Below, in pieces: positions 2,754 to 61,682 of a DNA stretch of 64,000 bases. The position numbers and the translations under genes are program-made. The notes under the pieces were generated by a model, which saw only the letters and a program-made list of their open reading frames with translations, searched no databases and was not told the origin of the DNA. Where the stretch lies: assembly GCF_002854065.1 (NCBI RefSeq), contig NZ_CP024147.1; one strand, 5' to 3'. Origin of the DNA: Escherichia coli (GTDB taxonomy: Bacteria; Pseudomonadota; Gammaproteobacteria; Enterobacterales; Enterobacteriaceae). Position 1 is the first letter of the stretch. Each line of letters opens with the position of its first letter.

Positions 2754-2766
2754 TTCTTGCCGCAGT

Positions 2767-2797
2767 GAAAAATGGCGCCCATCGGCGCCATTTTTTT
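2767..2797. terminator. Bidirectional Rho-independent terminator shared by crr (+) and pdxK (-)
   Basis: A-run, then GC stem tggcgcc / ggcgcca (2773-2790) with 4-nt loop, then T7 run; sits between convergent genes. Confidence 0.6.
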
Positions 2798-3647: not shown

Positions 3648-3660
3648 TTAATTTTTTCTC

Positions 3661-4120
<460 letters not shown>

Positions 4121-4122
4121 TC

Positions 4123-5034: not shown

Positions 5035-5054
5035 GATCTCTGTCCATACGTGGT

Positions 5055-5095
5055 GTCGCCTGATGCGACGCTTGCGCGTCTTATCAGGCCTACAG
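5055..5095. repeat. REP (repetitive extragenic palindromic) element between cysM and cysA
   Basis: Sequence cgcctgatgcgacgcttgcgcgtcttatcaggcctaca is an imperfect palindrome of the REP type. Confidence 0.55.
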
Positions 5096-5167
5096 GTTAC
5101 AAACCTTGCCATTAAAAAACCCGGATCGCGGGAAGCGCCTCCGGGCGTTTAACATTCACTCAACCTA

Positions 5168-7130: not shown

Positions 7131-7963
7131 TAATGACCTACCACACGCCGACCAAAGCGACTTTGCAGAGTGTTAATTGAGAACAGCAGCAGCAGAGATG
7201 CCGCGAGGATCACCGAAGCAATCGCGCTCGCCGCCGGGTAATCAAACTCCTGCAAGCGCACAAAAATCATCAGCGACGTCACTTCCGTCTTCCAGGCGAT
7301 GTTCCCGGCGATAAATATCACCGCGCCAAACTCACCAAGACTACGGGTAAACGACAGCGCCACGCCCGCCACCAGCGCCGGAGAAAGCTCCGGCAGCACC
7401 ACTTTGCAGAAACTTTGCCAGCGCGTTGCGCCAAGCGTTTCTGCCGCTTCTTCATATTCCGGGCCCAACTCTTCCAGCACCGGCTGCACGGTACGCACCA
7501 CAAACGGGATGCTGGTAAAGGCCATCGCCACCGCGATCCCAAGCCAGGTGTAGGTGACTTTGATATCAAACTTCGCCAGCCATTCACCGTAAAAACCGTT
7601 CACGGAAAAGAGCGAGGCCAGCGTTAAACCGGCGACTGCCGTTGGCAGCGCAAAGGGTAAATCCATCAGCGCATCAAGCAGCGTGCGGCCCGGAAAGCGA
7701 TAGCGGGTTAAGATCCACGCCATCAGCAGACCGAAAACGCCGTTAAAAATTGATGCCACAAACGCCGACAGCAGCGTCACTTTGTAGGCCGCGACCACCT
7801 GCGGGTTGGTGATCACCTCCCAGTACTGCGCCCAGCTCATCTCAGAGAGTTGCATAACCAGCGCAGAGAGCGGTAGCAGCAAAATCAGGCACACAAACAG
7901 CAGACTGGTGCCGAGGCTTAAGGTAAAGCCCGGCAGCACGCGTCTTGATGAAACTGCAAACAT
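7130..7963 (-). CDS. cysU: Sulfate/thiosulfate ABC transporter permease
   Basis: 277-aa membrane ORF, stop overlaps cysW start. Confidence 0.95.
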   Translation of the reverse strand: MFAVSSRRVLPGFTLSLGTSLLFVCLILLLPLSALVMQLSEMSWAQYWEVITNPQVVAAYKVTLLSAFVASIFNGVFGLLMAWILTRYRFPGRTLLDALMDLPFALPTAVAGLTLASLFSVNGFYGEWLAKFDIKVTYTWLGIAVAMAFTSIPFVVRTVQPVLEELGPEYEEAAETLGATRWQSFCKVVLPELSPALVAGVALSFTRSLGEFGAVIFIAGNIAWKTEVTSLMIFVRLQEFDYPAASAIASVILAASLLLLFSINTLQSRFGRRVVGH

Positions 7964-8979
7964 TACTTACGCCCCGCCGCTAACAGCTTGTCTAACTCGC
8001 CGCCGCTGGTGAAATGGGTTTTCATCACTTCCAGCCAGGAGCCAAATTTGTCTTCCACGCGGAACAGCTCGGTCTGCGGGAATTTGTCTTTCAGTTTGTC
8101 CATGACTTCCGGGTTATTTACGCGGTAGTAATAGTCGGTGATGATGGTCTGCGCCTGCGGGCTGTAGAGCCAATTCAGATAGGCAATTGCTGCTTTTTCC
8201 GTACCGTTGTCCTGCACGTTTTTATCGACCCACGCCACCGGGAATTCCGCCAGAATGTTGGTTTTCGGAATCACCACTTCAAAGCCCTGCGCTTCATACT
8301 GTTTGCGGATGTTGTTCACTTCCGACTCGAAGCTGATCAGCACATCGCCCAGGCCGCGCTCGGCAAAAGTGGTGGTCGCGCCACGACCGCCAGTATCGAA
8401 CACTTCAACGTTTTTCAGGAACTGGGTCATAAACTGTTCGGTTTTGGCTTTATCGCCACCGTCAGCTTTGTCCGCTGCGCCCCATGCCGCCAGATAGGTG
8501 TAACGCGCGTTACCGGAGGTTTTTGGGTTCGGAAAAATTAGCTTCACATCGGAGCGCACCAGGTCGTTCCAGTCGTGGATATTTTTCGGGTTGCCCTTAC
8601 GCACCAGGAAGCCCATGGTGGAGTAGAACGGCGAGCTATTATTCGGCAGGCGCGACTGCCAGTCCGCCGGGATAAGCTTGCCTTTATCGTGCAGAATTTG
8701 TACGTCGGTCACCTGGTTATAAGTGACAACGTCGGCTTTTAAGCCCTGCAAAATTGCCAGCGCCTGTTTTGATGACCCGGCATGAGATTGTTTTATCGTC
8801 AGTTTGTCGCCGCCGTTATCTTTGGCCCATTGTTGCTCAAACGGCGGGTTCAGGGCGGCAAACAGCTCGCGGGAGACGTCATAAGAACTGTTCAGCAGTT
8901 CCGTTGCCTGTACATGGCCCGCCAGCAGCAGAGAAGCGACCAGCGCGAGTGAGTTCTTTTTCAGTAAGTTAACGGCCAT
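7963..8979 (-). CDS. cysP: Thiosulfate-binding periplasmic protein
   Basis: 338-aa ORF with signal peptide, first gene of the cysPUWA-cysM cluster. Confidence 0.95.
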
Positions 8980-9136
8980 TGCGCACCCTTATAAATTTAA
9001 TGACTTTCTAATAGCCATCATATTTATAACGGACGTGAAAGGAGTAACGGTTTTATATACCGTTTGGTGATTTGGAAGTTGAAAAGGGAATAAGACGAAA
9101 TCCTCCCCACACATGCAGGGAGGAAACAGAGGTGAA

Positions 9137-9928
9137 TCAGATACCGACGCTGACCGTCTCCGGCAGTGTGCTGCCGCCATCAATCACATTCTGTGTACCG
9201 GTTAAATAGCTGGATTCATCCGATGCAAGGAAGGCCGCCAGTTCGCCGACTTCCAGCGGATCGGCGAGGCGACGCAGCGGGATTGCTTTTGCCATATCAG
9301 TCAGCACCGACTCTGGATCTTCCGGGTTCGACTGGCGGGCAATGCTTTCCGCCATTGGCGTGCGGACGTATCCCGGGCAGATGGCGTTAACGCGAATACC
9401 GGATTGCGCGTACTCCACCGCCAGCGATTTTGTCAGGCCAACAATCGCCGCTTTCGTTAAGGCGTACGCCGTTTCACCCGGATCGGCCACCATATCACCA
9501 GTGACTGAAGACATCATCACAATGCGACCATCTTTGCGGGCAATCATCTCCGGCAGCACCGCCTTCGTGACGTTCCATACGCCTTTAATATTGATGTCAA
9601 TATGGAAATCGCGATCGTCATCGCTCATATCGAGGAAACTGCCCAGACGACAAACGCCTGCGTTATTCACCAGGATATCAATGCGCCCTTCTTTTTCCTT
9701 CGCGCGTTTGATAGCTGCGGCTACCGACGCCGGGTCACGCACATCGGCGACAACCGCCGTACAGCGATGACCACGACCACACAGTTCGTCCGCCAGCTTT
9801 TCGATCTCAGGGGAGATATCCAGCAAGATTAGGTTTGCGCCATGACGCGCAAAAGTTCTGGCAATTCCTTCGCCAATTCCCTGCAATGCGCCCGTAATCA
9901 GTGCTGTCTTGCCCGTGAGTTTACCCAT
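9137..9928 (-). CDS. ucpA: Short-chain dehydrogenase/reductase UcpA
   Basis: Rossmann motif TGALQGIGEG; start refined to internal ATG (MGKLTGKTALITG) at 9926-9928. Confidence 0.85.
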   Translation of the reverse strand: MGKLTGKTALITGALQGIGEGIARTFARHGANLILLDISPEIEKLADELCGRGHRCTAVVADVRDPASVAAAIKRAKEKEGRIDILVNNAGVCRLGSFLDMSDDDRDFHIDINIKGVWNVTKAVLPEMIARKDGRIVMMSSVTGDMVADPGETAYALTKAAIVGLTKSLAVEYAQSGIRVNAICPGYVRTPMAESIARQSNPEDPESVLTDMAKAIPLRRLADPLEVGELAAFLASDESSYLTGTQNVIDGGSTLPETVSVGI

Positions 9929-19252: not shown

Positions 19253-20305
19253 TCACCCCCATTCCCGCATCCGCTGATGCAACGTCAACGACGGCTTCTC
19301 GGCAAACAGCTGCTGGTAATCCGTGGCAAATTGCCCCAGATGCCAGAATCCCCACTGCATGGCGGCGTCTTTTACCGTTGTGCTTTGCGACCACGGGCTT
19401 ATCAGTTCGCGGCGCACGGCGTTCAGGCGAATGCGTTTCAGCCACGCGTTTGGGCCAATGCCTAAAATAGCGTGAAACGCGTTTTGTAGCGTGCGGCGGC
19501 TGACATGCAGTTGATTACACAAATCCAGCACCGTCACCGGTTCGGACATGTTTTCCAGCACATATTCACGGGCGCGGGAAAGTAATCTACGGTAACTCTG
19601 ATGACTGATGCTTTCCGCCGTCACCATTGGCTGTGCTTCTTCCAGCATCGCCCCCATCGCCATTAGCAAATTATCCCCCAGCACTTTTCGCACTGCAGGC
19701 TGATGGAGATTTTCCGGGTTCTCGCAAAACGTCGCCAGCGCCTGTTGGACAAAGCCCCACAGCGCGGCTTTATGCTGCTCTTTCACTTCCAGCGCCGACT
19801 GGCTACGCAGCATATGTAATACCCGATCCGGATTATGCAAAAAGTTAGCCTGACGGGTGATGACATCTTCAGAAAGCACTACGCCCAGGATCGTGTAATC
19901 GTCCGGCGTACTTAATTCAAACTCGGTTCCACCGGGGCGCGTCGCTATTTCTGCGCTTCCCAGACATTGCGAACCGATAAATCCCTGCTCACCGCGCGTC
20001 GCCGGAATGCCAAACCAGAACGAGTTCGGCCAGACCAGGCACGACTGACGCAGCGCCAGACCGGTGTATTCACGAAAAACCTGAATATCATCGAGTAGAA
20101 TTTCCGTAAATTCACCATGAAACTTGCCCGGATGCAGCTGATCGTAAATCTGCTGCCAGGCGGTAATCGTTAAAGCATGTTCATAGACATCCGTTGTCTG
20201 TCGTTGATGAACATTATCCACTTCGACCTTCGGCGTGAGCTTCAGGTTTTCGGGTAAGGGTTCATGATAAAGATGGTGCAAATTGGCTGTACGGGTCTTT
20301 TTCAT
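19253..20305 (-). CDS. eutR: AraC-family activator of the eut operon
   Basis: 350-aa ORF with C-terminal AraC-type HTH; last gene of the eut cluster. Confidence 0.9.
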
Positions 20306-20350
20306 GATGTTAATGCCGGGTGTTGTAGGACACCCGGCACCTCCGACAGG

Positions 20351-20854
20351 TTAATGGGGCTTGAGACGATAACGACTACTGCGTTTACGTAACGTCCCGG
20401 CAGAAAAGAGCTGTTCGAGCGCATTTCTGGCTTTTTCCAGCGGCCAGCCAAAGTGGGCAGCCACTTCTCCTGCCGTCATTCCCTGACGTACTGATGTTAA
20501 CAGCGCCAACAACTCGTCAGCAGATTCCGCGACGATAACTGGCGCGTCGGGTTCCTTTACGGGTTGCTTCGGCTGGCGGTTAAAGCCAGTAACCAGCCAC
20601 TGGGTGTCATCGTCTGGCCGACCGATCTCCTTACGGCTGATGACACGCCCGGTACGCATCGCGGCAGCACAACCTGCGTCCAGCGCAGCACGACACGCCG
20701 CCAGATCGCCTTCCACCACCAGCGTTAAGCGACCAGGGTCAAGCACTTCGTGACTGAGCAGACAAACGTTAGCTGCTTTGAGCATGGCCGCTGCATCTAT
20801 CGCAGCGGCCATGCCGTCCACTTCCAGCAATCCCAGTGCATTGATCATCGGCAA
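20351..20854 (-). CDS. eutK: Ethanolamine-utilisation microcompartment shell protein EutK
   Basis: N-terminal BMC-domain-like sequence (ALGLLEVDGMAAAIDAAAMLKAANV) plus C-terminal extension; synteny. Confidence 0.85.
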   Translation of the reverse strand: MPMINALGLLEVDGMAAAIDAAAMLKAANVCLLSHEVLDPGRLTLVVEGDLAACRAALDAGCAAAMRTGRVISRKEIGRPDDDTQWLVTGFNRQPKQPVKEPDAPVIVAESADELLALLTSVRQGMTAGEVAAHFGWPLEKARNALEQLFSAGTLRKRSSRYRLKPH

Positions 20855-20860
20855 CCTCCA

Positions 20861-21520
20861 TTACGCACGCTGGATTGGATTACGCGCGATTTCCAGCACT
20901 GCATCGGTAAAGGCGTTACAGGCCGCTTTACACGCTGCCTGGCTACCGGTTAAAAATGCTGCCGAGTAGTTAGTTTCAGACGGTGGCGGGACATAGGTCA
21001 CCAGCTGTACGTCGGCAGATTTCAACGCTGCATCAATGCCGTAGGTCGCTTCCAGCGGCGGTGCCACCAGATACGCCATCGGATCGCCAAGCGTGATCCC
21101 GGCGGTTGATGAGAGATAAGAACCGGTACGCGAAACTACATGTGCCAGGAATGCCGTATCTTGCGCATCATTAGCCCACTGGAAAGCAGCGCCATTTTCA
21201 ATATGCGCAACCATCGCATCCAGACCGGCACGCACTTCCGCCGGGTTTGGCCCACCAAGCATAATCAGTACTTCACCGGCAGTCGGTGACGGGCCGTGTG
21301 CAGCGCCCGCATACAGCGAGCGGCCATACACCACTTCTACCATCGCTTGTTTGGTCGCTTCGTCAGCCGCAATGTAGGTTACGTCATCGGAATCAGCAGA
21401 AATCAGCCCGAGGCTACGAATATGCGGCGGCAATTTCAGTTCACGCGCAAAATCGGCGTTAACGGAGGCAATCACCCGCATAGCGGTGACAGACGGTCGA
21501 ATAAAATCTAAAGCTGGCAT
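20861..21520 (-). CDS. eutL: Ethanolamine-utilisation microcompartment shell protein EutL
   Basis: 219-aa tandem-BMC-type protein between eutC and eutK. Confidence 0.9.
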
Positions 21521-21529
21521 GATGCCTCC

Positions 21530-22417
21530 TTATCGGGTCATGTTGATGCCGGATGCTTTCTGCTCCAGCATACGTTTCGCCAAATCCACAATGACGGCTG
21601 CGGCTTCAACCGGCGGCGTGCCGCCCTGGTGAATGTTAGAGATACAGGTGCGATCGGCCTCAACGGTGGTCGCCATACGCGGCGAGTAAACGGCGTAGCA
21701 GGAGAGGCTTTCTGACTGACCCAACCCCGGACGTTCGCCCACCAGCAGGATCACTACTTTCGCGCCGAGGATCTCACCGATCTGATCTTCAATCTTCACG
21801 CGACCATAACGAACAAAGAATGGTGTACCGACTTTCAGCCCGGCCTGTTTCAGCCCCGCCATCAGCGGTGGCAGGATCTCTTCGTAGTTCACGGTGATCG
21901 CATCAGTTGACAGGCCATCAGAAATAACGACCTGTACGTCCGGATTAGCAACACACTGTGCTTTCAGCGCTTCAACAGCTTCTGCACACAGGCGGCGGCC
22001 CATATCCGGGCGAGTCAGGTAGAGATTTTTGTCGCTAATTTCAGAGCGTACTTCCAGCAAGCCCTGCGCTTTCACCCACTCTTCCGGCACTTCTTTAAGT
22101 ACGGTATCTTTCGAACGAGAGTGATCGGCCAGGAAACGCAGCAACGCCTGGGTACGCGGACGCGGACCGGCACGACCGGTACAAACGCGGGCCACGGTGC
22201 TGCGACGCAGTTCTGTTAACACATCCGCACGATGTGGGTTTTCAACACCAATCCACGCTTTTGCTTCCGCAGAACCTAAATCCAGCGCACAGCTTTCCGA
22301 GGTCACCGGTGCCGCACAGGTGGTAGTGGCGCACTTTGCTTCTGACGGCGCGGGGGCCGTTTGTCCCATTGACGCCATCACGCTGCGTACAATTTCTTCA
22401 ATCTGTTTTTGATCCAT
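21530..22417 (-). CDS. eutC: Ethanolamine ammonia-lyase small subunit
   Basis: 295-aa ORF downstream of eutB. Confidence 0.9.
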
Positions 22418-22437
22418 GATGTGTTATCTCCGCGTCA

Positions 22438-23799
22438 TCAGAAGAACAGTGACGGATCGCCCGCCCGTTTGATCAAGCGACCGTTTGCCATAATGCCCAT
22501 GCTTTCCAGCCAGCGTTCAAACTCCGGTGACGGGCGCAGGTTGAGTAACTGACGCACAGTGGCAGTGTCGTGGAAGGCGGTGGTCTGGTAGTTGAGCATG
22601 ATGTCATCGCCCAACGGCATCCCCATGATGTAATTGCAGCCTGCGGTGGCGAGCAGGATCATCAGGTTTTCGTTGAGGTTCTGGTCAGCGTCAGCGTGGT
22701 TGGTGTAACAGCAGTCACAGCCCATAGAGATGCCGCTCAGCTTGCCCATAAAGTGATCTTCTAAGCCCGCACGGATAATCTGGCGGTCGTTGTAGAGATA
22801 CTCCGGCCCAATAAAGCCGACCACGGTGTTGACGATAAACGGATCGTAATGACGCGCCAGCCCATAGTTACGTGCTTCCATCGTCACCTGGTCTGCGCCG
22901 AAGTTAGCGCCAGCGGATAGCGCTGAACCTTGTCCGGTTTCGAAGTAGAGGCAGTTTTCCCCGGCGATACGGTTGAACTCTGCACCCACTGCGCGCGCTT
23001 CGTCGAGCATCGCCAGTTCCACGCCAAACTCTTTCAGCCCTTTTTCACTGCCACAGATACTCTGGAAAATCAGCCCGCCTGGTGCGCCACGACGAATCGC
23101 TTCGATCTGGGTGGTGACGTGCGCCAGTACGCAGCCCTGAGTTGGGATGTTGAATTTGTCGATCACGCCATAGATGGTGTCCAGCACGCGGCTTAAGTTT
23201 TCCACGTCGTCAGTCACCGGGTTAACGCCGATCACCGCATCGCCCACCCCGAAGGAAAGCCCTTCGTAGATTTGCGCGGCGATACTTTGCACGTCGTCAC
23301 GGGTGTCATTTGGCTGCAAACGGGCGCTGAAGGTGCCCGGAATACCGATGGTGGTATTGGCCTTTTTGATTACCGGCATTTTCTTCGCGCCGTAGATCAG
23401 GTCCGCGTTGGAGCAAATCTTCGCTATCGCCGCGACCACTTCCGAGGTCAGCCCTTTGCGGGTAAAGGTAATGTCGTCCACGCTGGTTTCATCGCTCAGC
23501 ACATACTCACGCAGTTCGCTGATGCTCCAGTTTTTAATCTGGTTGTAGGCCGTTTCGTTAACATCGTCCTGAATCAGCCGCGTCACGCAGTCATCTTCAT
23601 AGGCAATCACCGGATTATTGCGGATGTCCGCTACGGTCATTTCCGACAACACCTGCTTTGCCGCCACGCGCTCCTGTGAACTTGCCGCTGCAACGCCTGC
23701 CAGCACATCCCCCGAACGCAGTTCGTTGGCTTTAGCCAGCACCTCTTTTACATCCTTAAACTGATATACATTGCCGAACAATGTGGTCTTTAGTTTCAT
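22438..23799 (-). CDS. eutB: Ethanolamine ammonia-lyase large subunit
   Basis: 453-aa ORF of the EutB family; first eut gene retained in this window. Confidence 0.9.
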   Translation of the reverse strand: MKLKTTLFGNVYQFKDVKEVLAKANELRSGDVLAGVAAASSQERVAAKQVLSEMTVADIRNNPVIAYEDDCVTRLIQDDVNETAYNQIKNWSISELREYVLSDETSVDDITFTRKGLTSEVVAAIAKICSNADLIYGAKKMPVIKKANTTIGIPGTFSARLQPNDTRDDVQSIAAQIYEGLSFGVGDAVIGVNPVTDDVENLSRVLDTIYGVIDKFNIPTQGCVLAHVTTQIEAIRRGAPGGLIFQSICGSEKGLKEFGVELAMLDEARAVGAEFNRIAGENCLYFETGQGSALSAGANFGADQVTMEARNYGLARHYDPFIVNTVVGFIGPEYLYNDRQIIRAGLEDHFMGKLSGISMGCDCCYTNHADADQNLNENLMILLATAGCNYIMGMPLGDDIMLNYQTTAFHDTATVRQLLNLRPSPEFERWLESMGIMANGRLIKRAGDPSLFF

Positions 23800-23986
23800 A
23801 AGTCGTTCCCTCAGGAAGAAGTGATGAGTAACATTTCTTCCAGCATTCGAACAATTCTATTTCATCGTTAGCCCTTGTCCTGTAAGGTAATTGTCTTAAC
23901 ACGCCCGTTATTCATCATGCCGAACGCAACCGAACGCGCCGGATACATGATCGGGTTTATCCAGTCGTTATGTCGAGGTATCCGGT

Positions 23987-25192
23987 TTGAGCAAGACACC
24001 ACTCACAGCAAAGGCCATCGCAGCCGCGCAGCCAAAAGACAAGCCCTATAAACTCACCGATTCACTGACGCCAGGACTGTTTTTGCTGGTGCATCCCAAC
24101 GGCAGCAAATACTGGCGATTCAGGTATTGGTTGAATAAACGAGAGTTTTTGCAGGCCATTGGTGTTTACCCGCTAATCACACTCAAAGAAGCACGCAGAC
24201 GCGCCACAGAGAGCCGATCTCTGATTGCTAATGGAATTAATCCAGTGGAAGAAGCACGCAAGGAAAAAGCCATTGATGCGCTCAACATGGCGGCAGGTTT
24301 TAAGACGGTAGCGGAGGACTGGCTGGCTACCAGGGTCAGCGGGTGGTCAGAGTCCTACACGAAACAGGTTAGATCGGCACTGGAAAAAGATGTTTACCCC
24401 GTGCTGGGGAAGCGGTCAATTGTCGATATAACGGCCCGTGACGTGCTGGAATTGCTTCAGAAGAAAGAGCGTACCGCACCGGAACAAGCCAGGAAGCTAC
24501 GCCAGCGTATCGGGGAGATCTTCAAATTTGCCGTTATCACCGAACTGGTGGCAAGAAATCCGGTTGCAGATCTGAACACAGCACTAAAAGCCCGCCGTCC
24601 GGGCCACAACGCATGGCTGCAAATTAACGAAATTCAGGCGTTCTATGAAGCACTTGAGAGAGCCGGGAGCGTCCAGATTCAGACGGCAATACGTTTGCTC
24701 ATATTGAGCGCTCTAAGGACGGTGGAACTGCGTAAAATGCGCTGGGAATGGGTTAACCTGGAAGACGCGATCATCACCCTACCCGCTGAAGTCATGAAGG
24801 CCCGTCGCCCGCATGTGGTCCCGCTATCACGGCAGGCGGTAGAGCTATTGCAGGACCAGTTTACTCGCACCGGATACAGCGCTTTCGTCTTCCCTGGTCG
24901 ATTCATGGATAAGCCCTTGTCTGCCAGCGCGATACTGAAAGCCCTGGAGCGTATCGGATACAAGTCGATAGCCACAGCACACGGCTGGCGTACAACGTTC
25001 AGCACGACGCTTAACGAGTCCGGCAGGTACTCACCAGACTGGATTGAAATCCAATTGGCCCACGTCCCGAAGGGTGTACGCGGTGTATATAACCAGGCGG
25101 CCTATCTCAAACAGCGCCGTCAAATGCTTCAGGACTACGCCGACGCCATTGATTCAATACTGGCTGGTGAAGGTAATCCGCTGGAACCGTGA
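23987..25192 (+). CDS. intZ: P4-type tyrosine integrase of a prophage remnant (TTG start)
   Basis: 401-aa ORF with N-terminal P4-integrase arm motif (KLTDSLTPGLFLLVHPNGSKYWRFRYW) and C-terminal tyrosine-recombinase core; K-12 has intZ next to eutB. Confidence 0.8.
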   Translation: MSKTPLTAKAIAAAQPKDKPYKLTDSLTPGLFLLVHPNGSKYWRFRYWLNKREFLQAIGVYPLITLKEARRRATESRSLIANGINPVEEARKEKAIDALNMAAGFKTVAEDWLATRVSGWSESYTKQVRSALEKDVYPVLGKRSIVDITARDVLELLQKKERTAPEQARKLRQRIGEIFKFAVITELVARNPVADLNTALKARRPGHNAWLQINEIQAFYEALERAGSVQIQTAIRLLILSALRTVELRKMRWEWVNLEDAIITLPAEVMKARRPHVVPLSRQAVELLQDQFTRTGYSAFVFPGRFMDKPLSASAILKALERIGYKSIATAHGWRTTFSTTLNESGRYSPDWIEIQLAHVPKGVRGVYNQAAYLKQRRQMLQDYADAIDSILAGEGNPLEP

Positions 25193-25198
25193 ACTATA

Positions 25199-25224
25199 AG
25201 GCCGGATTCGTCCGGCTTTTCTTT
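25199..25224 (+). terminator. Rho-independent terminator after the integrase gene
   Basis: Stem gccgga / tccggc with ttcg loop followed by ttttcttt. Confidence 0.5.
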
Positions 25225-25418
25225 CGCTAATTATTCCACTATTCCAATTAAGTGGAATAAATTATTCAATATCAAAAACTTACATCAATATTGCAACAAT
25301 AAAAACGGTGGCTTATGATCAGATCATGATTTTCGGTATGTGAACAGCAAAAACAAGAAGCCCGGAAAGGCGGCAACCAATCCGGGCGATATGGGAAAAG
25401 AGATTAGGAGGTTTCCCC

Positions 25419-26186
25419 ATGCGTAATAGTTTAGCAGTTCGCTTTAGCTTGCAGCAAGGCGAAGAATTATCACAGGAATATCAATTCATCAAATACGAAG
25501 AAGCGCCGGAACAGGTGCAAATAGCTTTTGATGATCAGCACTACGGCAACACTATCCGCTACGACGGTAAAAAATGGTTTCTCAATCCGGTAACAAATGC
25601 CATTCACGTATGTCAAATCATTACGCCAGTAAATAACAGCGCGGATAACGATTCGGCTATTGACGCTGAACTGGTGACAGAACCACTACCGCCACCGCCG
25701 CCAGTACAAGAAAGCGATGTAAAACCCGACGCCATCGATCTGACAGCAGAAGCCAGAGAGCGCAAACAACCGAAGCCGGAACAACCGCAAGCCAAGGATA
25801 ACAAACAGTGGCACGGTAACACGGCGTATCTGAATACGTTTGCTTGTCATCTTCATGAAGTGCTACCACAGGCCATCTATAGCACATGGTGCGACAAACA
25901 AACGGCGGCACACTTCCACCTGCTTTACGCGCTTTGCTACCTGGCAAGCTACGAAAACAAAGATGAAGGTATCGAGCTTGGCGAGGTGTTATATGGTGCT
26001 GAAAAGATCACAAAGGGCGGCGTAGTACCTGGTTTCCATATGGCCCGATCAACGTTCGATATCAAGATTAACGAGCTTGAACAGTGGGGATTAATCAAGG
26101 TAACACGAGGTAAGAAACGTAAGGACGGGCAAGGCAACTTGCCGAACAGTATCAAACTGAACTTTAAGCCGTACAGTTTAAAATAA
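25419..26186 (+). CDS. Hypothetical prophage protein, possibly a winged-helix replication-initiator-like protein
   Basis: 255-aa ORF behind a strong SD (aggagg); proline/acidic linker then a basic C-terminal segment (ELEQWGLIKVTRGKKRKDG) resembling winged-helix initiators; weak inference. Confidence 0.55.
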   Translation: MRNSLAVRFSLQQGEELSQEYQFIKYEEAPEQVQIAFDDQHYGNTIRYDGKKWFLNPVTNAIHVCQIITPVNNSADNDSAIDAELVTEPLPPPPPVQESDVKPDAIDLTAEARERKQPKPEQPQAKDNKQWHGNTAYLNTFACHLHEVLPQAIYSTWCDKQTAAHFHLLYALCYLASYENKDEGIELGEVLYGAEKITKGGVVPGFHMARSTFDIKINELEQWGLIKVTRGKKRKDGQGNLPNSIKLNFKPYSLK

Positions 26187-26194
26187 TCACACTA

Positions 26195-26220
26195 GGCGGG
26201 CAATGTTCCCGCCTTTTCTT
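26195..26220 (+). terminator. Rho-independent terminator after the 255-aa ORF
   Basis: Stem ggcggg / cccgcc with 7-nt loop followed by ttttctt. Confidence 0.5.
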
Positions 26221-26243
26221 TGCCTCAATCCTATAAAATTCAC

Positions 26244-26282
26244 ATCCCGAAAATCGGTATCTGGGTATCCCGAAAATCGGTA
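26244..26282. repeat. Two perfect 16-bp direct repeats ATCCCGAAAATCGGTA with 23-bp period
   Basis: Copies at 26244-26259 and 26267-26282, immediately followed by an AT-rich tract. Confidence 0.7.
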
Positions 26283-27668
26283 AGTAATAATAAGTATTAT
26301 CCTTAAAGGTAAAAACCATATAAGTAAGATCTATCTCTTCAAGAATGTATATATTCACTACGTTCATATATACATGAGAAGTTTCCCTTTCATGCAGTCA
26401 AAACTACATTCATCAGCATCGCTTTCTGCGCTCTCCTTCCCAGCAAGCTGGAAAGGCCCATTCACTCACGCACAACCTGCAAACCAGACCAACATACCAT
26501 CATGGCGATTCGTTCATGGGTAGCGCGGGTATATCTCAAAGGGTGATTTCTTCTTGGTGGACCTTCGGAAGACTTCGAGCAATCGCCAGCTCAAAAGACG
26601 GTCTGGCAGTGATGGTTATCATCGACAGCATTGAGCGCTACCGCGCCAACTTACAGCAGCAGGATAACTACCGAAGGAAAACCCACGCCGAAAGGGATTG
26701 ACTCACTGCAAAGCCAATGGGTTTTATCAGCGTATACAGACCAGACAGGAAACAGCAGCAAAGCAGCGTATAGCCAGGTGCAGACAGTACCATCACACAA
26801 CGCACAGCAGGCTGAGGTGAACACTCAAACAGGTTTATCCCCGCAGCCGACCAACGCAAACCATCCTGACCGTGCCAAATTCGAACGGAATGGTGCCTGT
26901 AACGCGATGAACACATATAACCGCTTACTTGCTTACCTGAAAACTTCACGTCGCCACAGAGCGATTTAGACGCATTATAATTGATGCGATTTCATTAAAT
27001 TTTCACCAGACACCGGAACAACGCCGATTAATCCAGGAATGGATTCATCGACATGCGCCGCTTTCCCCGCAGAACAGTCTCGCCTGAATAGTCTCACCAA
27101 CCAGATTTCAGATTGTCCAATCAGGCACGTCTCATTAAACGACAGAATGCGGCCTACAACGCCATCGCTGCCGATCTCGTTTGAGCAAGGTGCTGAGACT
27201 GAATGACGGACGCCCACTCCTCAGAGCTGAGGAATCGCCACACAGAACGCTGAGATCTGATATTACCGCCGCACCATTCCACGCCAGACGAATCAATCTA
27301 ATCACACCTGAGCAAATGCATTGCCAAAAATTAAGGCCGTCAGAATGCGTTATATTGCGTTTAAACGGCATCTAATTTTAATTAGTTTTGATGTGGTGAT
27401 TGCAGGCAAAAAAAATCCCGCCGGAGAGAGCGGGGAAGTGAAATCAATCGTTGTAGTTATAGATCACATTTTGAGTAAGGGTTACCAGCCCTTGAGTAAT
27501 ATTATCCCTGTATTACGTGAGATGCGCAATTATTTTTTGCTAATTAAAAGTTTTGTAAACATTACAGAATATCCCCTTTCCCTATATGGTAAAAGATGTG
27601 AAACAGGGACATGAGGAATATAATATTAAGTATCAACAGTAATGTTGGTCTTTAATTTCATTCAGGGC

Positions 27669-27710
27669 GCGGTGAGGGTTTTCCCATATTTTTCCTCACC
27701 GCTACTTTTT
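27669..27710 (+). terminator. Terminator/attenuator-like hairpin in the leader of the AlpA-like gene
   Basis: Perfect 9-bp stem gcggtgagg (27669-27677) / cctcaccgc (27694-27702), 16-nt loop, T5 run at 27706-27710. Confidence 0.4.
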
Positions 27711-27721
27711 GAGGTGAGAAC

Positions 27722-27913
27722 ATGAATGATAGCGAATTAATGACGGTGAGCGAGGTAGCCGCTTTATTCGGCGTTACCCGACGCACTATATTCCGCTGGC
27801 TGAACAAGATTAAAGGTTGGCCCGTTCCGGTTACTCCGGTCGGTGCACGAATTAAGTTTATCCGATCTGAGATTTTGGAATTCTATAAAAACAAAGGCGC
27901 TCGCCACCAATGA
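27722..27913 (+). CDS. AlpA/excisionase-family helix-turn-helix prophage regulator
   Basis: 63-aa ORF MNDSELMTVSEVAALFGVTRRTIFRWLNK; HTH typical of prophage AlpA/Xis-type regulators; SD gaggtga 6 nt upstream. Confidence 0.7.
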   Translation: MNDSELMTVSEVAALFGVTRRTIFRWLNKIKGWPVPVTPVGARIKFIRSEILEFYKNKGARHQ

Positions 27914-27989
27914 AAACAGCTACTGAGATTATCAAATAACCTATTGATTTAATAAGCTAGCTACCGCAATTTCTGAAGGAATAGGCAGC

Positions 27990-28316
27990 ATGAAAATCAA
28001 AGCAAACACAATTAAAGAAATAACATCAATCAAAGTAAAAGGAGCAGATGCCATGCATTCATTAGACAGTTATTTTCAGCGCACGACAGCCCCTAAATCA
28101 GCCGCCCAGGAACGCCGTGAGGAATTCCAGGAAAAAGTGATGCGTTCTGCTGATTATATTGCGGACAAGTTCGTGGAAACGGTTCGGCCACTTGTTGATG
28201 AAGTAGCTGATAAACTTCAGTCTGAAATGCCGGAAGACATGGAAGGCACTGCAAAGGCGCGACTCCTTTTTGAATTAAGTCGTCGTTTCGGCGTGTCAAT
28301 AAGCACTTTTAAATAA
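27990..28316 (+). CDS. Hypothetical prophage protein (108 aa; may start at internal Met)
   Basis: ORF in co-directional tight cassette; no recognisable motif. Confidence 0.45.
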   Translation: MKIKANTIKEITSIKVKGADAMHSLDSYFQRTTAPKSAAQERREEFQEKVMRSADYIADKFVETVRPLVDEVADKLQSEMPEDMEGTAKARLLFELSRRFGVSISTFK

Positions 28317-28333
28317 TCGGAGGAGAAAAGACA

Positions 28334-28876
28334 ATGGACGCATTTGATGTACTGACAAACAAAGGCGATGAACTGGTAGCACAGCGTGATAAAACCGCCA
28401 ACGAAGGGGAACGCGCACTGTTAAATAAGCAGATTAAAGCGATCCGTATGGCCCAGTTTAAATTAATCAGCAATGAAGTTATCGAAATAATTAAACCGCA
28501 GATCCCACAAATCGTTGCTGACGCTATTAAAGCCGCCGGACTGGAGAAACGCATTGCCGGGCTGAAAACGAACGCAGAGAAAATGGAGATGCACAAACAG
28601 AGCGGTGCTCCGACTCCGGATGAGTACTTCTCACCGGATGCTGAGTTTATGGCGCAGGTTGAGGAACGTCTGGGTAGCTGTCTCACCGAGGAACAGCGTC
28701 GCTATTTTGATGGAGTGGATAGTTCGGCAGGTATTGACCTGAACTCGTGTTTCGGTCGTGAAATTGAGCATTTTGATGCCGCCCCGTCTATGCCGGAGCC
28801 AGAACCAGAAATGGCCGCCGATCCTGAAGCTGAGCAACGGAAACGCGTATTCAATGCGATAGGGATTCGGTACTGA
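28334..28876 (+). CDS. Hypothetical prophage protein (180 aa) with acidic C-terminal tail
   Basis: Strong SD (ggagga) 7 nt upstream; predicted helical N-terminal half and PEPEPE-containing acidic tail; no recognisable motif. Confidence 0.55.
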   Translation: MDAFDVLTNKGDELVAQRDKTANEGERALLNKQIKAIRMAQFKLISNEVIEIIKPQIPQIVADAIKAAGLEKRIAGLKTNAEKMEMHKQSGAPTPDEYFSPDAEFMAQVEERLGSCLTEEQRRYFDGVDSSAGIDLNSCFGREIEHFDAAPSMPEPEPEMAADPEAEQRKRVFNAIGIRY

Positions 28877-28927
28877 TCGGATAAAAGAAAGCCGGGAATT
28901 ACCCCGGCTGACTTAACAATGTGACCA

Positions 28928-29302
28928 ATGAACAAATCGGACAAGACAAACAGGATAAGCAGTCTCGAAACAATGTTCGGGAACTATATTAGCACAAGTC
29001 CGGAGAAAATCATCATGTTGGCACTACGCATCATGCAGGGCATCGCTAAGACCCTCGCAGAACATGTCTTAGACCTGAAACATTCGCCACTGAGCAAACA
29101 GGCCATGAAGCGCCAAACGCTTCGTCTGTGGGCTGAATATTCGCTTGGAACTATCAATAAAATCATCGACATGAAATCGGGGCCGAGCAACCAGAGCGCG
29201 GAGGAAATGGAGTTCATCAGGCGTTTAATTCTCATTCGCAGAGATATTCATAGCCAGTTACACAGCGTGGGAATCGATATTAATGATGGGACGGGCGATT
29301 AA
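28928..29302 (+). CDS. Hypothetical prophage protein (124 aa)
   Basis: ORF in same cassette; basic, helical; no recognisable motif. Confidence 0.5.
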   Translation: MNKSDKTNRISSLETMFGNYISTSPEKIIMLALRIMQGIAKTLAEHVLDLKHSPLSKQAMKRQTLRLWAEYSLGTINKIIDMKSGPSNQSAEEMEFIRRLILIRRDIHSQLHSVGIDINDGTGD

Positions 29303-29340
29303 TTTTCGGACAAGTACAATGCGCGCGCGAGGAGCTGAAC

Positions 29341-29571
29341 ATGAAGCAAGATATTGCAGACAGGCTGGAGATACTCGAAGGCCAGCGGGCAGAAGCGAAA
29401 CAACTACGTAAGCAGGCCAGAAGAGCGCACAGGAACTACGAAGCAGAATCACTGACCGCTTTCATCAACTTCACAAACCGTTGCATCCAGGAGTGTTACA
29501 GGGAGGATGCAGAAAACTGGCTGGATTCATTGCCAGAACAGACTCTGCATGAACTGAACGGCGACCAGTAA
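29341..29571 (+). CDS. Hypothetical prophage protein (76 aa, coiled-coil-like)
   Basis: SD gaggag 7 nt upstream of ATG; Arg/Glu/Gln-rich helical sequence. Confidence 0.45.
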   Translation: MKQDIADRLEILEGQRAEAKQLRKQARRAHRNYEAESLTAFINFTNRCIQECYREDAENWLDSLPEQTLHELNGDQ

Positions 29572-29859
29572 ATAAATCCAGTACGTTTCCCGCAGTGCGC
29601 ATAACGTACATTATGTGAAAAACGATATGGATGTATATCAGTATTGATTTCATTGAGAAAACTGGGTTTTCAGTGGCACAGACAAAGAAGCATAGCTGAT
29701 ACAGCTTTATAAGCCATTGATTCTATTAAGTGATGTTTTTTGTGATTGGTTGAAGCAAACCAAAACACGATGCCACTGAAGCGTTAATAAACTGTTTCAA
29801 TGTGAAATTATTAGAGTAAAGAACAATTTGGAGGGTCCGCAAACGCGGATAACAATATC

Positions 29860-32040
29860 ATGAGTGGAAATCTCGGGACCATATACTACGAGGTCGATGC
29901 CCGCACTGGGAAACTTCTTATCGCGCAACAGCAGGCGGAAGAGGCGTTCGATCGCATTGAACGAGGAGCGCGGAAGGCTGATAGCGGCGTCAAAAAGTTA
30001 AATACGCAGATGACTAAAACATCAGCCGCAGTCAAAACCAACCTTTCCCCGGCAATCCGTAACGCATCATACCAGATCGCAGACCTTGCCACTCAATTGC
30101 AGATGGGCGGTAATGCGCTTCAGGCGTTCGCTGTGCAGGGTGCGCAGTTATTAGCTGGCTTTGGCACGATGGGCGCGGTAGCTGGCGCGGTGCTGGCTAT
30201 CGCTGGCGCTATGGGTGGAAGCCTGGCACAAGGCGCTGATAGTGCAGCCGGATCGGTTGAGTATCTGGACAAGGCGATCACCAAACTGAACGAGGTCATA
30301 GCTGTAAATGAACAGGGCGTGACGGTGATGAGTGATAGTTACGCCAGACTTTCTAAGGTTAACGCTGAAGTAGCGAAACAGATGCGGAACATGGCTGAAA
30401 TTCAGGCAATTGCAGCACTGCGTGACCTGAAAGAACAGGCAAGCCAGGCACAGGGGGAAATGTCGTCATTCTGGCGCAGCTTGCAGGGTGGTAAAGCTGA
30501 CGCAGCAGCAGCAGCACAGGCACTTGATGATCTTGGAATCACAACCAACGACTACAAAGAGGCGATAGCCATACTGAACGCCAATCAGCCGGATACACAG
30601 GCGCAAATGGCAACGCTAGCCAAATCCGTGATGTATGTTGGAGAGCAATATGATCTGACCAACCAGCAAGCATACGAATTTATACGCGCACTAAATAAGG
30701 CCGCGACAACGAAAACGCCGGAAGCCATGCAGGAGCTATCTGGCTTCATGCAGGTTTTGCTTCAGGATACCGAAAACGGTAACGAGGCATTCCGTGAACT
30801 GGCTATCAAATTCGTCGATGCACAAACCAAAGGCGCAATGTTGGAGGACCAACTAAACCGACTGAAAGGCGCTATTAGTGACGCAGCCACAGAAGCCAGA
30901 AACGCAAACTTTACCACTATGCTCAACACCGTCGCCGCACGCCTGGCAACCATTGAGCAAGGTTGGGAGGCAGGCGTTAGGATGCAGATGAAAGCCCAGG
31001 GCTACACTGAAGAGCAGATCGATGAATATGTGAACATGGAAACGGCGTACCGTGATGCAAAAGCCGCTTTGGACGAGAAGAACAAGGCCGACCGTGAAGC
31101 TATTGCGCTATCCAAACGCCAGGCCGCAGAAGCAGCCCGCAAGGCAAAACAGGAAGAAGCTGAAGCACAACGCAAGGCCAAACAGTTAGCCGCGCAGAAG
31201 GAGCAGGCAGGACGCTTTACGCAGCAAGTAATGACGGAATACCTGACGACCGTAGATCCGGCAACAGGCAAGGCGTTTAACCCTGCCGCACAAGTAGAAA
31301 TGCAGGAGCAGCAGAAGAAAGCGGCGCTGGATAAATACAGACAGTTGGGCGTCCTGGATGAACAGCAGTACCAGAACACGCTAACCGCCATCCAGAAAAC
31401 CGCGTCAATGCGCCGCCAGCAAATCATCAAAGACGAGGCCGACACGTTATTCAACAATCAGCAACAGTTGATCGGCACATTTGGCGATTTCTTCGGTGAA
31501 CTGTCTGGAGTCATAGCAGACGGTGCAGGTGAGCAAAACGCGGCATATCAAGCGCTATTTGCTGTGCAGAAGGGTTTTGTATTGGCATCAGCAGCTTTAA
31601 GCCTTCAGAAAGCGCTTGCTGAGGCAAACGCCTTGCCTTTCCCGGCTAATCTTCCGGCCTATGCGCAAGCTATGTCAGCAGGTACGCAGATCATTTCAGC
31701 TATTCGTGGAATAGCTTTCGGTGGCGGACGCTACAACGGCGGCGCGGTTGGTGCTGGCAACCTGTACCGCGTGGGTGAACACGGTAAGCCTGAGATATTC
31801 AAGGCGAACAATGGCAGCCAGTACATGATCCCAGGTGATAACGGTCGCGTGATAAGTAATCGTGACATTGGCGGCGGTGGCGGCGTAACAATCAACAGCC
31901 CGATCACCATTAACACTACGAATGGCTTCAGTGATGAAGACTCAAGGCGTCTTGAGGAAGCGATGAAGCGCGTAGCTATGGGCGTTTGCAGGCAGGAGTC
32001 AACCAGACCGGGAGGAATGTTAGCCCCGCGCCGTCGTTAA
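29860..32040 (+). CDS. Phage tail tape-measure-like protein
   Basis: 726-aa Ala/Gln-rich mostly helical ORF with glycine-rich hydrophobic N-terminal segment, long coiled-coil region (AEAARKAKQEEAEAQRKAKQLAAQKEQ) and C-terminal Gly-rich motif GGGRYNGGAVGAGNLYRVGEHG resembling the lambda gpH C-terminus as recalled. Confidence 0.65.
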   Translation: MSGNLGTIYYEVDARTGKLLIAQQQAEEAFDRIERGARKADSGVKKLNTQMTKTSAAVKTNLSPAIRNASYQIADLATQLQMGGNALQAFAVQGAQLLAGFGTMGAVAGAVLAIAGAMGGSLAQGADSAAGSVEYLDKAITKLNEVIAVNEQGVTVMSDSYARLSKVNAEVAKQMRNMAEIQAIAALRDLKEQASQAQGEMSSFWRSLQGGKADAAAAAQALDDLGITTNDYKEAIAILNANQPDTQAQMATLAKSVMYVGEQYDLTNQQAYEFIRALNKAATTKTPEAMQELSGFMQVLLQDTENGNEAFRELAIKFVDAQTKGAMLEDQLNRLKGAISDAATEARNANFTTMLNTVAARLATIEQGWEAGVRMQMKAQGYTEEQIDEYVNMETAYRDAKAALDEKNKADREAIALSKRQAAEAARKAKQEEAEAQRKAKQLAAQKEQAGRFTQQVMTEYLTTVDPATGKAFNPAAQVEMQEQQKKAALDKYRQLGVLDEQQYQNTLTAIQKTASMRRQQIIKDEADTLFNNQQQLIGTFGDFFGELSGVIADGAGEQNAAYQALFAVQKGFVLASAALSLQKALAEANALPFPANLPAYAQAMSAGTQIISAIRGIAFGGGRYNGGAVGAGNLYRVGEHGKPEIFKANNGSQYMIPGDNGRVISNRDIGGGGGVTINSPITINTTNGFSDEDSRRLEEAMKRVAMGVCRQESTRPGGMLAPRRR

Positions 32041-32163
32041 CCAAATCCCACGCCAGGGGAACAGACTGGCGGACCTTCAAAGACGGTCGCACACCGTGTT
32101 TGACATAATTTATTGTTTTTTGCTTGCTCTTATTATTGCAGCCGTTAGGGTAATGACTCCAAC

Positions 32164-32667
32164 TTATTGATAGTGTTTTATGTTCAGATAATGCCCGATG
32201 ACTTTGTCATGCAGCTCCACCGATTTTGAGAACGACAGCGACTTCCGTCCCAGCCGTGCCAGGTGCTGCCTCAGATTCAGGTTATGCCGCTCAATTCGCT
32301 GCGTATATCGCTTGCTGATTACGTGCAGCTTTCCCTTCAGGCGGGATTCATACAGCGGCCAGCCATCCGTCATCCATATCACCACGTCAAAGGGTGACAG
32401 CAGGCTCATAAGACGCCCCAGCGTCGCCATAGTGCGTTCACCGAATACGTGCGCAACAACCGTCTTCCGGAGACTGTCATACGCGTAAAACAGCCAGCGC
32501 TGGCGCGATTTAGCCCCGACGTATCCCCACTGTTCGTCCATTTCCGCGCAGACGATGACGTCACTGCCCGGCTGTATGCGCGAGGTTACCGACTGCGGCC
32601 TGAGTTTTTTAAATGGCGGAAAATCGTGTTGAGGCCAACGCCCATAATGCGGGCGGTTGCCCGGCAT
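32164..32667 (-). CDS. insB: IS1 InsB reading frame (expressed as InsAB transposase by -1 frameshift)
   Basis: 167-aa ORF overlapping the insA 3-prime end in the -1 frame, classic IS1 organisation. Confidence 0.85.
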
Positions 32668-32861
32668 CCAACGCCATTCATGGCCATATCAATGATTTTC
32701 TGGTGCGTACCGGGTTGAGAAGCGGTGTAAGTGAACTGCAGTTGCCATGTTTTACGGCAGTGAGAGCAGAGATAGCGCTGATGTCCGGCAGTGCTTTTGC
32801 CGTTACGCACCACCCCGTCAGTAGCTGAACAGGAGGGACAGCTGATAGAAACAGAAGCCAC
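32586..32861 (-). CDS. insA: IS1 InsA protein
   Basis: 91-aa [46 protein letters not shown] with zinc-finger cysteines. Confidence 0.9.
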
Positions 32862-32988
32862 TGGAGCACCTCAAAAACACCATCATACACTAAATCAGTA
32901 AGTTGGCAGCATCACCAGCTTTACTAATATATTGCAGCTGGACCGCTTACCCTGAATATTCAGGGTAAGCGTGAGAGTTAAAAAAGAA

Positions 32989-35268
32989 TTACAGCGGTTG
33001 GGTTTGCGCTTCAACCACGGCCAGCGCCACCATGTTGACGATACGACGTACCGATGCGATCGGCGTTAACACGTGAACCGGTTTCGCCACGCCCATCAGC
33101 ACCGGACCGACAGTCACACCTTCCGAGCTGGAAACGCGCAGTAAGTTGTAACTAATGCGGGCAGCTTCCATGTTTGGCATTACCAGAATATTGGCAGAAC
33201 CTTTCAAAGGGCTGTCCGGCATACGGTCGTTGCGAATCGCTTCCACCAGCGCTGCATCGCCGTGCATTTCACCATCAATCATCAGTTCTGGCGCACGTTC
33301 CCTGACCAGTTCCAGCGCCTGACGCATTTTGCTCGACGACGGACAGTCAGAAGAACCAAAGTTGGAGTGCGACAACAGAGCAACGCGCGGCTCAATACCA
33401 AAACGACGGACAGTTTCTGCCGCCATCAAGGTGATCTCCGCCAGCTCTTCTGCGTCTGGTTCGTCATTGACGTAGGTATCGGCAATAAAGGTGTTACCAC
33501 TCGGCAGCAGCAGCGCGTTCATTGCACCTGCGGTGTGAACGCCATCGCGATAACCAAAGACATTTTTCACCACGCTAAAATGTTCATGATAATCACCCAC
33601 CGTACCGCAAATCATTGCATCGGCTTCGCCACGCTGAACCATGATCGCGCCGATCACTGTCGGGTTACTGATCAACGCCCGCTGCGCCTGTTCCTGAGTG
33701 ACGCCGCGACGCTTCATGATCTGGAAGTATTCGGTCCAGTACTCTTTAAAGCGCGGATCGGATTCGTTATTGACGATCTCAAAATCAACGCCCGCTTTGA
33801 TCTGCAAGCCCAGTTTCTGAATGCGCATTTCGATCACGTTCGGACGACCGATAAGGATCGGTTTCGCCAGTCCCAGCGTTACCAGTTCCTGAGTGGCATG
33901 TAGAACGCGCGCCTCTTCCCCTTCCGGCAGAACTACGCGCTTCGGCGCTTTGCGAGCCTGGGAGAAAATCGGCTTCATAAACAGGTTGGTTTTGTAAACG
34001 AACTCAGTCAGCTTGTCGATGTAGACGTCGAAATCAGCAATCGGACGCGTCGCCACGCCCGACTCCATCGCCGCTTTCGCGACCGCAGGAGCGATCTTAA
34101 CGATCAAGCGCGGATCAAACGGTTTTGGAATGATGTATTCCGGACCAAAGCTCAGATCCTGATCGCCATACGCTGAAGCCACCACTTCGCTCTGTTCCGC
34201 ATGGGCCAGTTCTGCAATCGCGCGTACCGCCGCCAGTTTCATCTCTTCGTTGATGGCGGTTGCGCCAACGTCCAGCGCGCCACGGAAGATGAACGGGAAG
34301 CAAAGGACGTTGTTGACCTGGTTTGGATAGTCAGAACGACCGGTGCAGATGATGGCATCCGGACGCACTTCTTTCGCCAGCGGCGGCAGAATTTCCGGTT
34401 CCGGGTTCGCCAGCGCCAGGATCATTGGCGCTCGAGCCATTTTCTTCACCATTTCCTGGGTCAGCACTTTCGGGCCGGAACAGCCGAGGAAAATATCCGC
34501 GCCTTCAATCACATCATCGAGGGTACGTTTGCCGTCATCCACTACCGCATATGCGGCTTTGGTTTCCGCCATGTTTGGCTCACGGCCCTGATAGATAACG
34601 CCTTTTGAATCGCAAACCACGATGTTATGTTTTTGCAGACCCAGCGCGACCAGCAGGTTCATACAGGCGATTGCTGCAGCACCCGCGCCGGAAACCACCA
34701 TACGCACGTCAGAGATGTTTTTCTCCACCACGCGCAAGCCGTTGAGGATGGCGGCAGTGCTGATGATTGCCGTGCCGTGCTGATCGTCGTGGAATACCGG
34801 AATATTCATCCGCTCGCGCAGTTTCTGTTCAATATAGAAACATTCTGGCGCTTTAATGTCTTCGAGGTTGATTCCGCCGAAGGTCGGTTCGAGCGCAGCG
34901 ACGACTTCAATAAATTTGTCCGGGTCGAGTTCATCAACTTCAATGTCAAATACATCAATCCCGGCGAATTTCTTAAACAGAACGCCCTTGCCTTCCATCA
35001 CCGGTTTGCCTGCCAGCGCGCCAATGTTGCCTAACCCCAGCACCGCCGTACCGTTAGAGATCACCGCCACCAGGTTACCGCGCGCGGTATATTTGTAGGC
35101 TTTTAACGGGTCTTTTTCGATTTCAAGACAAGGTGCGGCAACGCCTGGTGAGTAGGCCAGCGCCAGATCGCGCTGCGTTGCCAGAGGCTTGGTTGGAGAA
35201 ACCTGGATTTTCCCTGGAACTGGAAATTCATGGAAATCAAGTGCACTTTGTTTTAACTGGTCATCCAT
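32989..35268 (-). CDS. maeB: NADP-dependent malic enzyme
   Basis: 759-aa ORF with N-terminal malic enzyme domain and C-terminal phosphotransacetylase-like domain. Confidence 0.95.
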
Positions 35269-60708: not shown

Positions 60709-60718
60709 GGAAATCACC

Positions 60719-61666: not shown

Positions 61667-61682
61667 GGAGCACTGACGGAAT

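Follow-up and report, generated by a model that had tools for sequence, protein, structure and literature searches.

The window, by which we mean the whole stretch of 64,000 nucleotides of Escherichia coli DNA analyzed, contains only eutB, eutC, eutL, eutK and eutR of the 17-gene eut operon (eutS to eutR). These genes lie on the minus strand and encode EutR, the AraC-type activator of the operon (19253..20305; NCBIfam NF007522, E-value = 2e-238, model positions 1-350 of 350), the microcompartment shell protein EutK (20351..20854; NF012010, E-value = 2e-104), the shell protein EutL (20861..21520; NF011934), and the small and large subunits of ethanolamine ammonia-lyase, EutC (21530..22417; NF003971) and EutB (22438..23799; NF011649). 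According to the NCBIfam equivalog models, all five ORFs are full length. None of the genes eutA, eutH, eutG, eutJ, eutE, eutN, eutM, eutD, eutT, eutQ, eutP and eutS was found within the 64-kb window, where the only related matches were at the level of paralogues (EutM to EutK, and EutD to the PTA domain of MaeB). The eutBCLKR group is an orphan remnant without the promoter of the operon. The gene maeB, encoding the NADP malic enzyme, is intact (32989..35268, minus strand; NF009501); in intact strains, it lies next to eutS on its upstream side, both genes being encoded by one strand.

The eutB start codon is followed directly by AAGTCGTTCCC-TCAGGAAG, and from there on the sequence no longer matches the order found without a prophage, where TCAGGAAG and the stop codon of eutA overlap. 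When strain GF124.3, which is free of the prophage, and strain 13TMH22 were compared with the window, TCAGGAAG at 23811..23818 was recognized as the attL core of a CPZ-55-like prophage; in K-12, the attachment core of CPZ-55 is an 8-bp duplication (PMC6379469). The assignment to the CPZ-55 type follows from TCAGGAAG adjoining eutB and from an intZ-type integrase at the eutB-proximal end. The prophage (23819..32148, plus strand) is cryptic and truncated, being 8,330 bp long, with approximately 2.6 kb of its distal part gone. It carries a tyrosine integrase gene (23987-25192; NCBIfam), annotated as intZ in the near-identical genomes CUWW06 and 100416 and also in 13TMH22, an excisionase-like HTH gene (27722-27913; PHROGs match) and a 726-aa tape-measure-like ORF (29860-32040) matching tail tape-measure PHROGs (phrog_1538, E-value = 7e-103), with a weak match to PF10145. 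A search of the prophage ORFs against PHROGs gave matches for the tape-measure and the HTH/excisionase-like ORFs only, a PADLOC search of nine prophage ORFs gave none, and an Rfam scan of 23700-33300 revealed no family at the gathering score. It should be noted that a module at 25205-26706, including a 255-aa ORF (25419-26186) with no match in PHROGs or PADLOC, did not align to the corresponding part of the 13TMH22 prophage; to judge by this, it looks like a swapped cargo segment beside the integrase.

The tape-measure-like ORF is followed by the last 108 bp of retained prophage DNA (32041..32148), which are identical to 13TMH22 up to position 21549 of its locus (L005), and then by a complete IS1 of the IS1B type (768 bp, 32149..32916, minus strand). 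Its IRR end (32149) is directed towards the prophage and the deletion, whereas its IRL end at 32916 faces maeB; the terminal inverted repeats (32149-32171 and 32894-32916) are imperfect, 23 nt long, with arms that are 78% complementary. The 91-aa insA frame (32586-32861, minus strand), the translation of which is full length, and the 167-aa insB' frame (32164-32667, minus strand) both match the IS1 transposase model NF033558 (transpos_IS1), and the A6C frameshift motif TTTAAAAAAC is located on the coding strand at approximately 32603-32612. The identical copy in CUWW06 and 100416 is labelled in RefSeq as 'IS1B family transposase, programmed frameshift', and all 768 bp align with IS1 copies of other genomes at 98.7-99.9% identity. 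By its length, inverted repeats, reading frames and transposase model, the element is a bona fide IS1.

Between IS1 and maeB, 72 of the 292 bp of the maeB-eutS spacer remain (32917..32988; aligned to L005 from 34577). The positions given in the original prediction for the eutR-eutB block (19253-23799), the end of the prophage ORF (32040), IS1 (32149-32916), the 72-bp interval and the maeB stop codon (32989) were all correct. Within the 72 bp, just downstream of maeB, a perfect hairpin with a 12-bp stem was found at 32944-32971 (−24 kcal/mol, z = −4.65). The hairpin was rejected as a canonical intrinsic terminator, the maeB strand having no U-tract, and is regarded as a 3' hairpin only; a scan of 31900-33100 for intrinsic terminators gave no canonical matches. 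A promoter-like pattern (TTGGCA, 16-nt spacer, TAATAT; 32903-32930, plus strand) extends across the IRL end of IS1 and the flank and points antisense into the 3' end of maeB, being predicted by pattern only.

DNA missing relative to an intact strain

Strain 13TMH22, which carries a prophage of the same type (99.5% identity) in the full arrangement, served as the comparator. Its gene order is eutR-K-L-C-B, intZ and prophage, two hypothetical genes, yffS, eutA-H-G-J-E-N-M-D(pta)-T-Q-P-S and maeB, and the order of eut and prophage genes in K-12 is the same (PMC6379469, PMC7617246). The K-12 order with eutS beside maeB, on which the original prediction was based, was thus confirmed both by 13TMH22 and by the published descriptions. 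Pairwise alignment placed the breakpoints at window 32148 (L005 21549) and window 32917 (L005 34577), so that the left junction of the deletion is 32148|32149, in AT-rich surroundings, and the right one adjoins the spacer remnant. In total, 13,027 bp of the 13TMH22 sequence (L005 21550-34576) are absent, with IS1 in their place, and comprise 2,582 bp of the distal prophage with attR, 10,225 bp from eutA to eutS and 220 bp upstream of eutS.

The twelve eut genes predicted to be missing are exactly those located in the absent segment. The predicted loss of the distal prophage end was also borne out, since two hypothetical genes, yffS and attR (approximately 2.6 kb) are gone. The second copy of TCAGGAAG, which represents attR, is part of the lost DNA (L005 24132-24139); where the locus is intact, this copy overlaps the stop codon of eutA. 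Consequently, the window prophage is a truncated remnant that is locked in place, and its excision is no longer possible, because attR is missing. As for the main eut promoter, which had likewise been predicted to be lost, all 220 bp upstream of eutS are gone; to judge by the geometry of the locus, the eutS-proximal promoter would lie in this lost portion, since the retained 72 bp hold only the strong hairpin after maeB. The deletion itself is near certain, and chance is of no concern here, as the evidence is a direct structural comparison.

The flanks of IS1 were compared with those of a simple insertion, which is expected to show a direct target duplication of 9 bp (occasionally 8 bp) on both sides. 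In the window, IS1 is bordered by AGCCGTTAG on the prophage side and by AGCTTTACT on the maeB side, that is, there is no 9-bp target duplication. The positive control, a simple IS1 insertion in strain A30 with intact eut genes, is located 22 bp closer to maeB and has CAAACCGCT on both sides. Since the target duplication is absent, the IS1 sequence and its flanks indicate that the window copy is not a simple insertion. A 9-mer, TATTGCAGC, present at 32134-32142 and at 32930-32938, was considered as an att or recombination signal and rejected owing to its unequal offsets from the IS ends; the colinearity of both IS1 flanks with their separate positions in the intact strain also argues against such a signal.

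Related strains and the distribution of IS1 insertions

Among 5,426 complete E. coli genomes, eutE was detected in 5,410 and was lacking in 16, and an identical IS1-maeB junction was found only in CUWW06 (wastewater, Thailand) and 100416 (human stool, Gambia), both of which are closed genomes. A link with the B lineage, references of which the original prediction had proposed for alignment, did not hold: BL21 carries eutE, and no B strain has the junction. The sister genomes were examined with a chimeric query combining 1.4 kb of the rare prophage and 0.9 kb of eutE, with the number of matching places per record being counted. CUWW06 and 100416 each gave one place (the prophage only), so that eutE is not present elsewhere on the chromosome, whereas every other prophage-bearing genome among the matches listed gave two. 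The proviso of the original prediction that eutA-eutS might be found elsewhere in the genome is therefore answered in favour of a deletion, directly (for eutE) in these two closed relatives and by analogy for the source genome, 64 kb of which were covered.

The prevalence of the operon was at first assessed with a 9.4-kb eutA-eutQ query (L005 24132-33554), which was spoiled by a short repeat and replaced by eutE alone; the repeat, at query positions of about 2658-2742 near the eutH/eutG spacer, matches almost every genome. With the longer query, less than 80% of eutA-eutQ was matched in one place in approximately 850 of the 5,426 complete genomes, many of which matched from eutG onward only (query 2658-9423). 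This pattern suggests that a sizeable group of strains either has a divergent eutA-eutH allele or carries an insertion close to the eutH/eutG repeat.

Over about 25 kb, only a few SNPs distinguish the window, CUWW06 and 100416 from one another, and their IS1 copies are separated by one base at most. The right junction is the same in all three; the prophage-side ends, in window-equivalent coordinates, are located at 32148 in the window, at 31951 in CUWW06 (197 bp further into the prophage) and at 28446/7 in 100416 (approximately 3.7 kb further in). Shared derived bases group the window with CUWW06, which is its best match among the complete genomes and differs from it at the left junction and in the hyf region. 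In the latter, the stretch at 60631-63367, from the 3' end of hyfB through hyfC and hyfD to the 5' end of hyfE, is intact in the window, whereas in CUWW06 IS26 has taken its place, leaving a truncated hyfB and only part of hyfE; the two genomes are set apart by this second IS-associated loss.

An exact-protein look-up of the tape-measure-like ORF provided a set of draft contigs, in which the 23 contigs read represented six distinct public contigs (four from NCBI assemblies, one from an ENA metagenome and one from a Logan run). Draft assemblies counted among the clade are GCA_028755615.1, GCA_903974175.1, GCA_036586325.1 and GCA_027979865.1. All six run through the same 108 bp into IS1 without a single mismatch and end inside IS1, and hence they document the left junction only. 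Across about 12.4 kb, they show 3-14 mismatches relative to the window. As contigs diverged to this extent carry the same left junction, it is common to a diversified clone and plausibly represents an earlier state than the junctions of CUWW06 and 100416. An ancestor with IS1 at the exact site, flanked on either side by AGCTTTACT, and with the eut operon intact is predicted from these data; it was absent from the 5,426 complete genomes, and scanning metagenome contigs for exact matches to it also gave nothing. The number of IS1 matching places per chromosome in this lineage is at least 39-40, compared with a median of 10.

The maeB-eutS spacer is 292 bp long and has an A+T content of 64%, compared with 47.7% for the window. 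IS1 insertions in and near it were inspected directly in four other genomes (comparator loci L004, L009, L010 and L002), all of them being simple insertions in the same orientation with intact eut genes: 50 bp from the maeB stop codon in A30, 102 bp in 503025, 256 bp in PO06101, and between eutS and eutP in GF124.3. Together with the window and with LF3-1, which is discussed below, the checked IS1 sites are at 50, 72, 102 and 256 bp from the maeB stop codon, in the eutS/eutP gap and inside eutP. The spans of the matched pieces suggest a dozen or more distinct IS1 positions among 25 genomes, the spacer query detecting same-orientation IS1 only. IS1 prefers AT-rich targets, and the spacer insertions fit this preference. 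Thus, the AT-rich maeB-eutS spacer appears to be a hot spot for IS1. In strain LF3-1, which also carries an intZ prophage (locus L008, 8757-9907), IS1 lies inside eutP, and eutQ-eutA are gone; this is an independent case of IS1-associated eut loss. Beside this IS1, a partial second IS1 and unrelated genes (gadC-like, murI and a decarboxylase fragment) were observed.

Origin of the deletion

The most probable origin of this structure, which we hold with good though not complete confidence, is an adjacent deletion anchored at an IS1 copy already resident in the maeB-eutS spacer. An ancestor would have carried a CPZ-55-like prophage at TCAGGAAG between eutA and eutB, and IS1 would then have inserted into the AT-rich spacer, 72 bp downstream of maeB in terms of its stop codon and 220 bp upstream of eutS. 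Subsequently, the prophage-facing IRR end of the resident IS1 would have attacked a site in the prophage on the same chromosome (intramolecular transposition), removing 13,027 bp with the eut promoter region, eutS to eutA, attR, yffS and two other prophage genes. Such an event would leave IS1 and its maeB-side flank untouched and produce no target duplication, and the same IS1 end may later have cut further into the prophage in the sister strains. A fixed end on one side and nested, variable ends on the other are characteristic of adjacent deletions arising from a resident IS. Correspondingly, IS1 was kept in the window, contiguous DNA of intact relatives is missing from one side of it only, and in the window, CUWW06 and 100416 the right junction is fixed while the left one varies. 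In view of the nested series, IS1 would have occupied its fixed site before the deletion. IS copies lacking a target site duplication are known to arise from adjacent deletions, which have been described for IS elements in general (PMC11708052). On every feature that can be examined in the sequence, the structure fits an IS adjacent deletion; the order of events, and transposition rather than recombination as the cutting step, are what we infer from it.

The alternative of homologous recombination assumes a second IS1 in the same orientation in the prophage at 32148, followed by RecA-dependent recombination that looped out 13 kb and left one hybrid IS1. Its product would be identical base for base, namely, a single IS1 whose flanks come from two insertions and show no matching duplication; moreover, new insertions should be frequent in a lineage with about 40 IS1 copies, and in the long-term evolution experiment, recombination between IS copies accounted for about 70% of the large rearrangements (PMC4173774). 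However, three left ends combined with one constant right end would require a fresh same-orientation IS1 each time, one of them only 197 bp from an existing IS1, and two steps per event instead of the single step of an adjacent deletion, which is less parsimonious; a two-copy intermediate was not seen among the genomes compared. Recombination is therefore considered unlikely, though worth keeping in view, and adjacent deletion of the transposition type stands well ahead of it.

Far less probable still is an assembly artefact, in which two IS1 copies with the eut genes between them were collapsed into one. IS1 is a multi-copy repeat, and all short-read contigs with the left junction break inside it; yet in each of the two genomes of this lineage that were closed independently, one IS1 copy adjoins maeB and the rest of the chromosome is devoid of eutE, and the window sequence runs without a break through IS1 into unique DNA at either end. 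The remaining reading, that the junction is ancestral and that eutA-eutS were never present in this lineage and were gained by other strains, is refuted, with practically no probability left to it: no point in its support was found, and it is contradicted by the presence of eutE in 5,410 of the 5,426 complete genomes, by the loss from the window prophage of attR and of distal genes, which are retained by strains whose copy of this prophage is 99.5-99.9% identical, by the mobile element exactly at the breakpoint, and by the nature of eutBCLKR, which is the tail of an operon, eutB having no promoter of its own. The original prediction, which had named an ancestral arrangement as its possible refutation, is upheld on this point, and the junction is derived, as is also indicated by the lack of a target duplication.

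Comparison with known systems and state of the eut pathway

The preferred reading, adjacent deletion from a resident IS1, has close counterparts. Reif and Saedler reportedly described IS1-promoted adjacent deletions in the gal region of E. coli K-12 in 1975. The deletion in the window resembles them in that IS1 is kept at the junction, one flank is constant and the other variable, and no target duplication is present; as in the gal deletions and in IS adjacent deletions in general, the lost DNA is contiguous in intact relatives, and progressively larger deletions share the same end. In contrast to the gal deletions, the present case concerns natural isolates instead of a selection experiment, the ancestral simple insertion was not recovered, and the loss includes the end of a prophage and most of a 17-gene catabolic operon.

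A further parallel is provided by the IS150-associated rbs deletions of the long-term evolution experiment, in which a resident IS beside a dispensable catabolic operon gave rise to recurrent loss of the operon, with the end fixed at the IS and varying distal ends (PMC4173774). IS150 is a member of the IS3 family, which distinguishes it from IS1 at the eut locus, and the rbs losses are reported as beneficial and highly parallel in 12 populations. At eut, parallelism amounts to three endpoints in one clone and one independent case (LF3-1).

With K-12 CPZ-55, the window prophage shares the insertion site TCAGGAAG at the eutA stop codon, an intZ-type integrase and the expected Eut-negative state. 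In K-12, none of the 17 eut genes and neither of the att sites has been lost, and excision could in principle restore the operon there, whereas in the window attR and 12 genes are gone; the cargo is also different, the 8.3-kb remnant containing the tape-measure-like gene. Insertion of CPZ-55 between eutA and eutB is sufficient by itself to make K-12 Eut-negative (PMC3045373, PMC6379469, PMC7617246), and the eutA/eutB site is presented in PMC6652756 as a hot spot of prophage insertion. Since the prophage splits eutA from eutB, the eut operon of the window was, by analogy with K-12, probably non-functional before the deletion.

Relaxed selection would be a sufficient explanation for the loss, because the deletion most likely met an operon that had already been disabled. 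The view that the loss was a favoured, repeatable route and not a neutral accident seems to us rather improbable. In that case, induction by ethanolamine and B12 would lead to expression of the twelve upstream genes, including those for shell proteins, without the lyase; such expression would be wasteful and possibly harmful, the IS1 hot spot would supply the tool for its removal, and LF3-1, having lost eutQ-eutA, would provide a second case. Ethanolamine use has been linked to competition in the gut and the urinary tract (PMC6652756 and PMC11101070).

Taken from the sequence, the loss of ethanolamine use would now be irreversible, as there is no attR for excision and twelve genes are gone, and the corresponding phenotype is what this gene content predicts. 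Growth of the strain on ethanolamine is therefore not to be expected, and the remaining annotation of eutBCLKR should not be equated with a functional pathway. A literature search combining the eut operon, IS1 and deletion returned nothing relevant to this deletion. The locus is a new instance of the textbook IS-mediated deletion and involves no new element or mechanism. Its value is that of a rare lineage in which a pathway near-universal in E. coli was removed, apparently irreversibly, by a route resolved to the base pair, while the three nested endpoints capture, in natural isolates, the stepwise erosion of a locus from a single IS end, a process otherwise documented mainly in laboratory evolution.

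The substitutions private to the window in the retained eutBCLKR genes number two, L6F in EutL and T443I in EutB (window 21503 and 22472, respectively), and both are non-synonymous; this fits relaxed constraint on an orphan remnant, with which two changes are compatible while being too few to carry weight. EutR and EutBC, which were retained, may also serve some function apart from the operon, such as ethanolamine sensing, although this, too, seems rather improbable.
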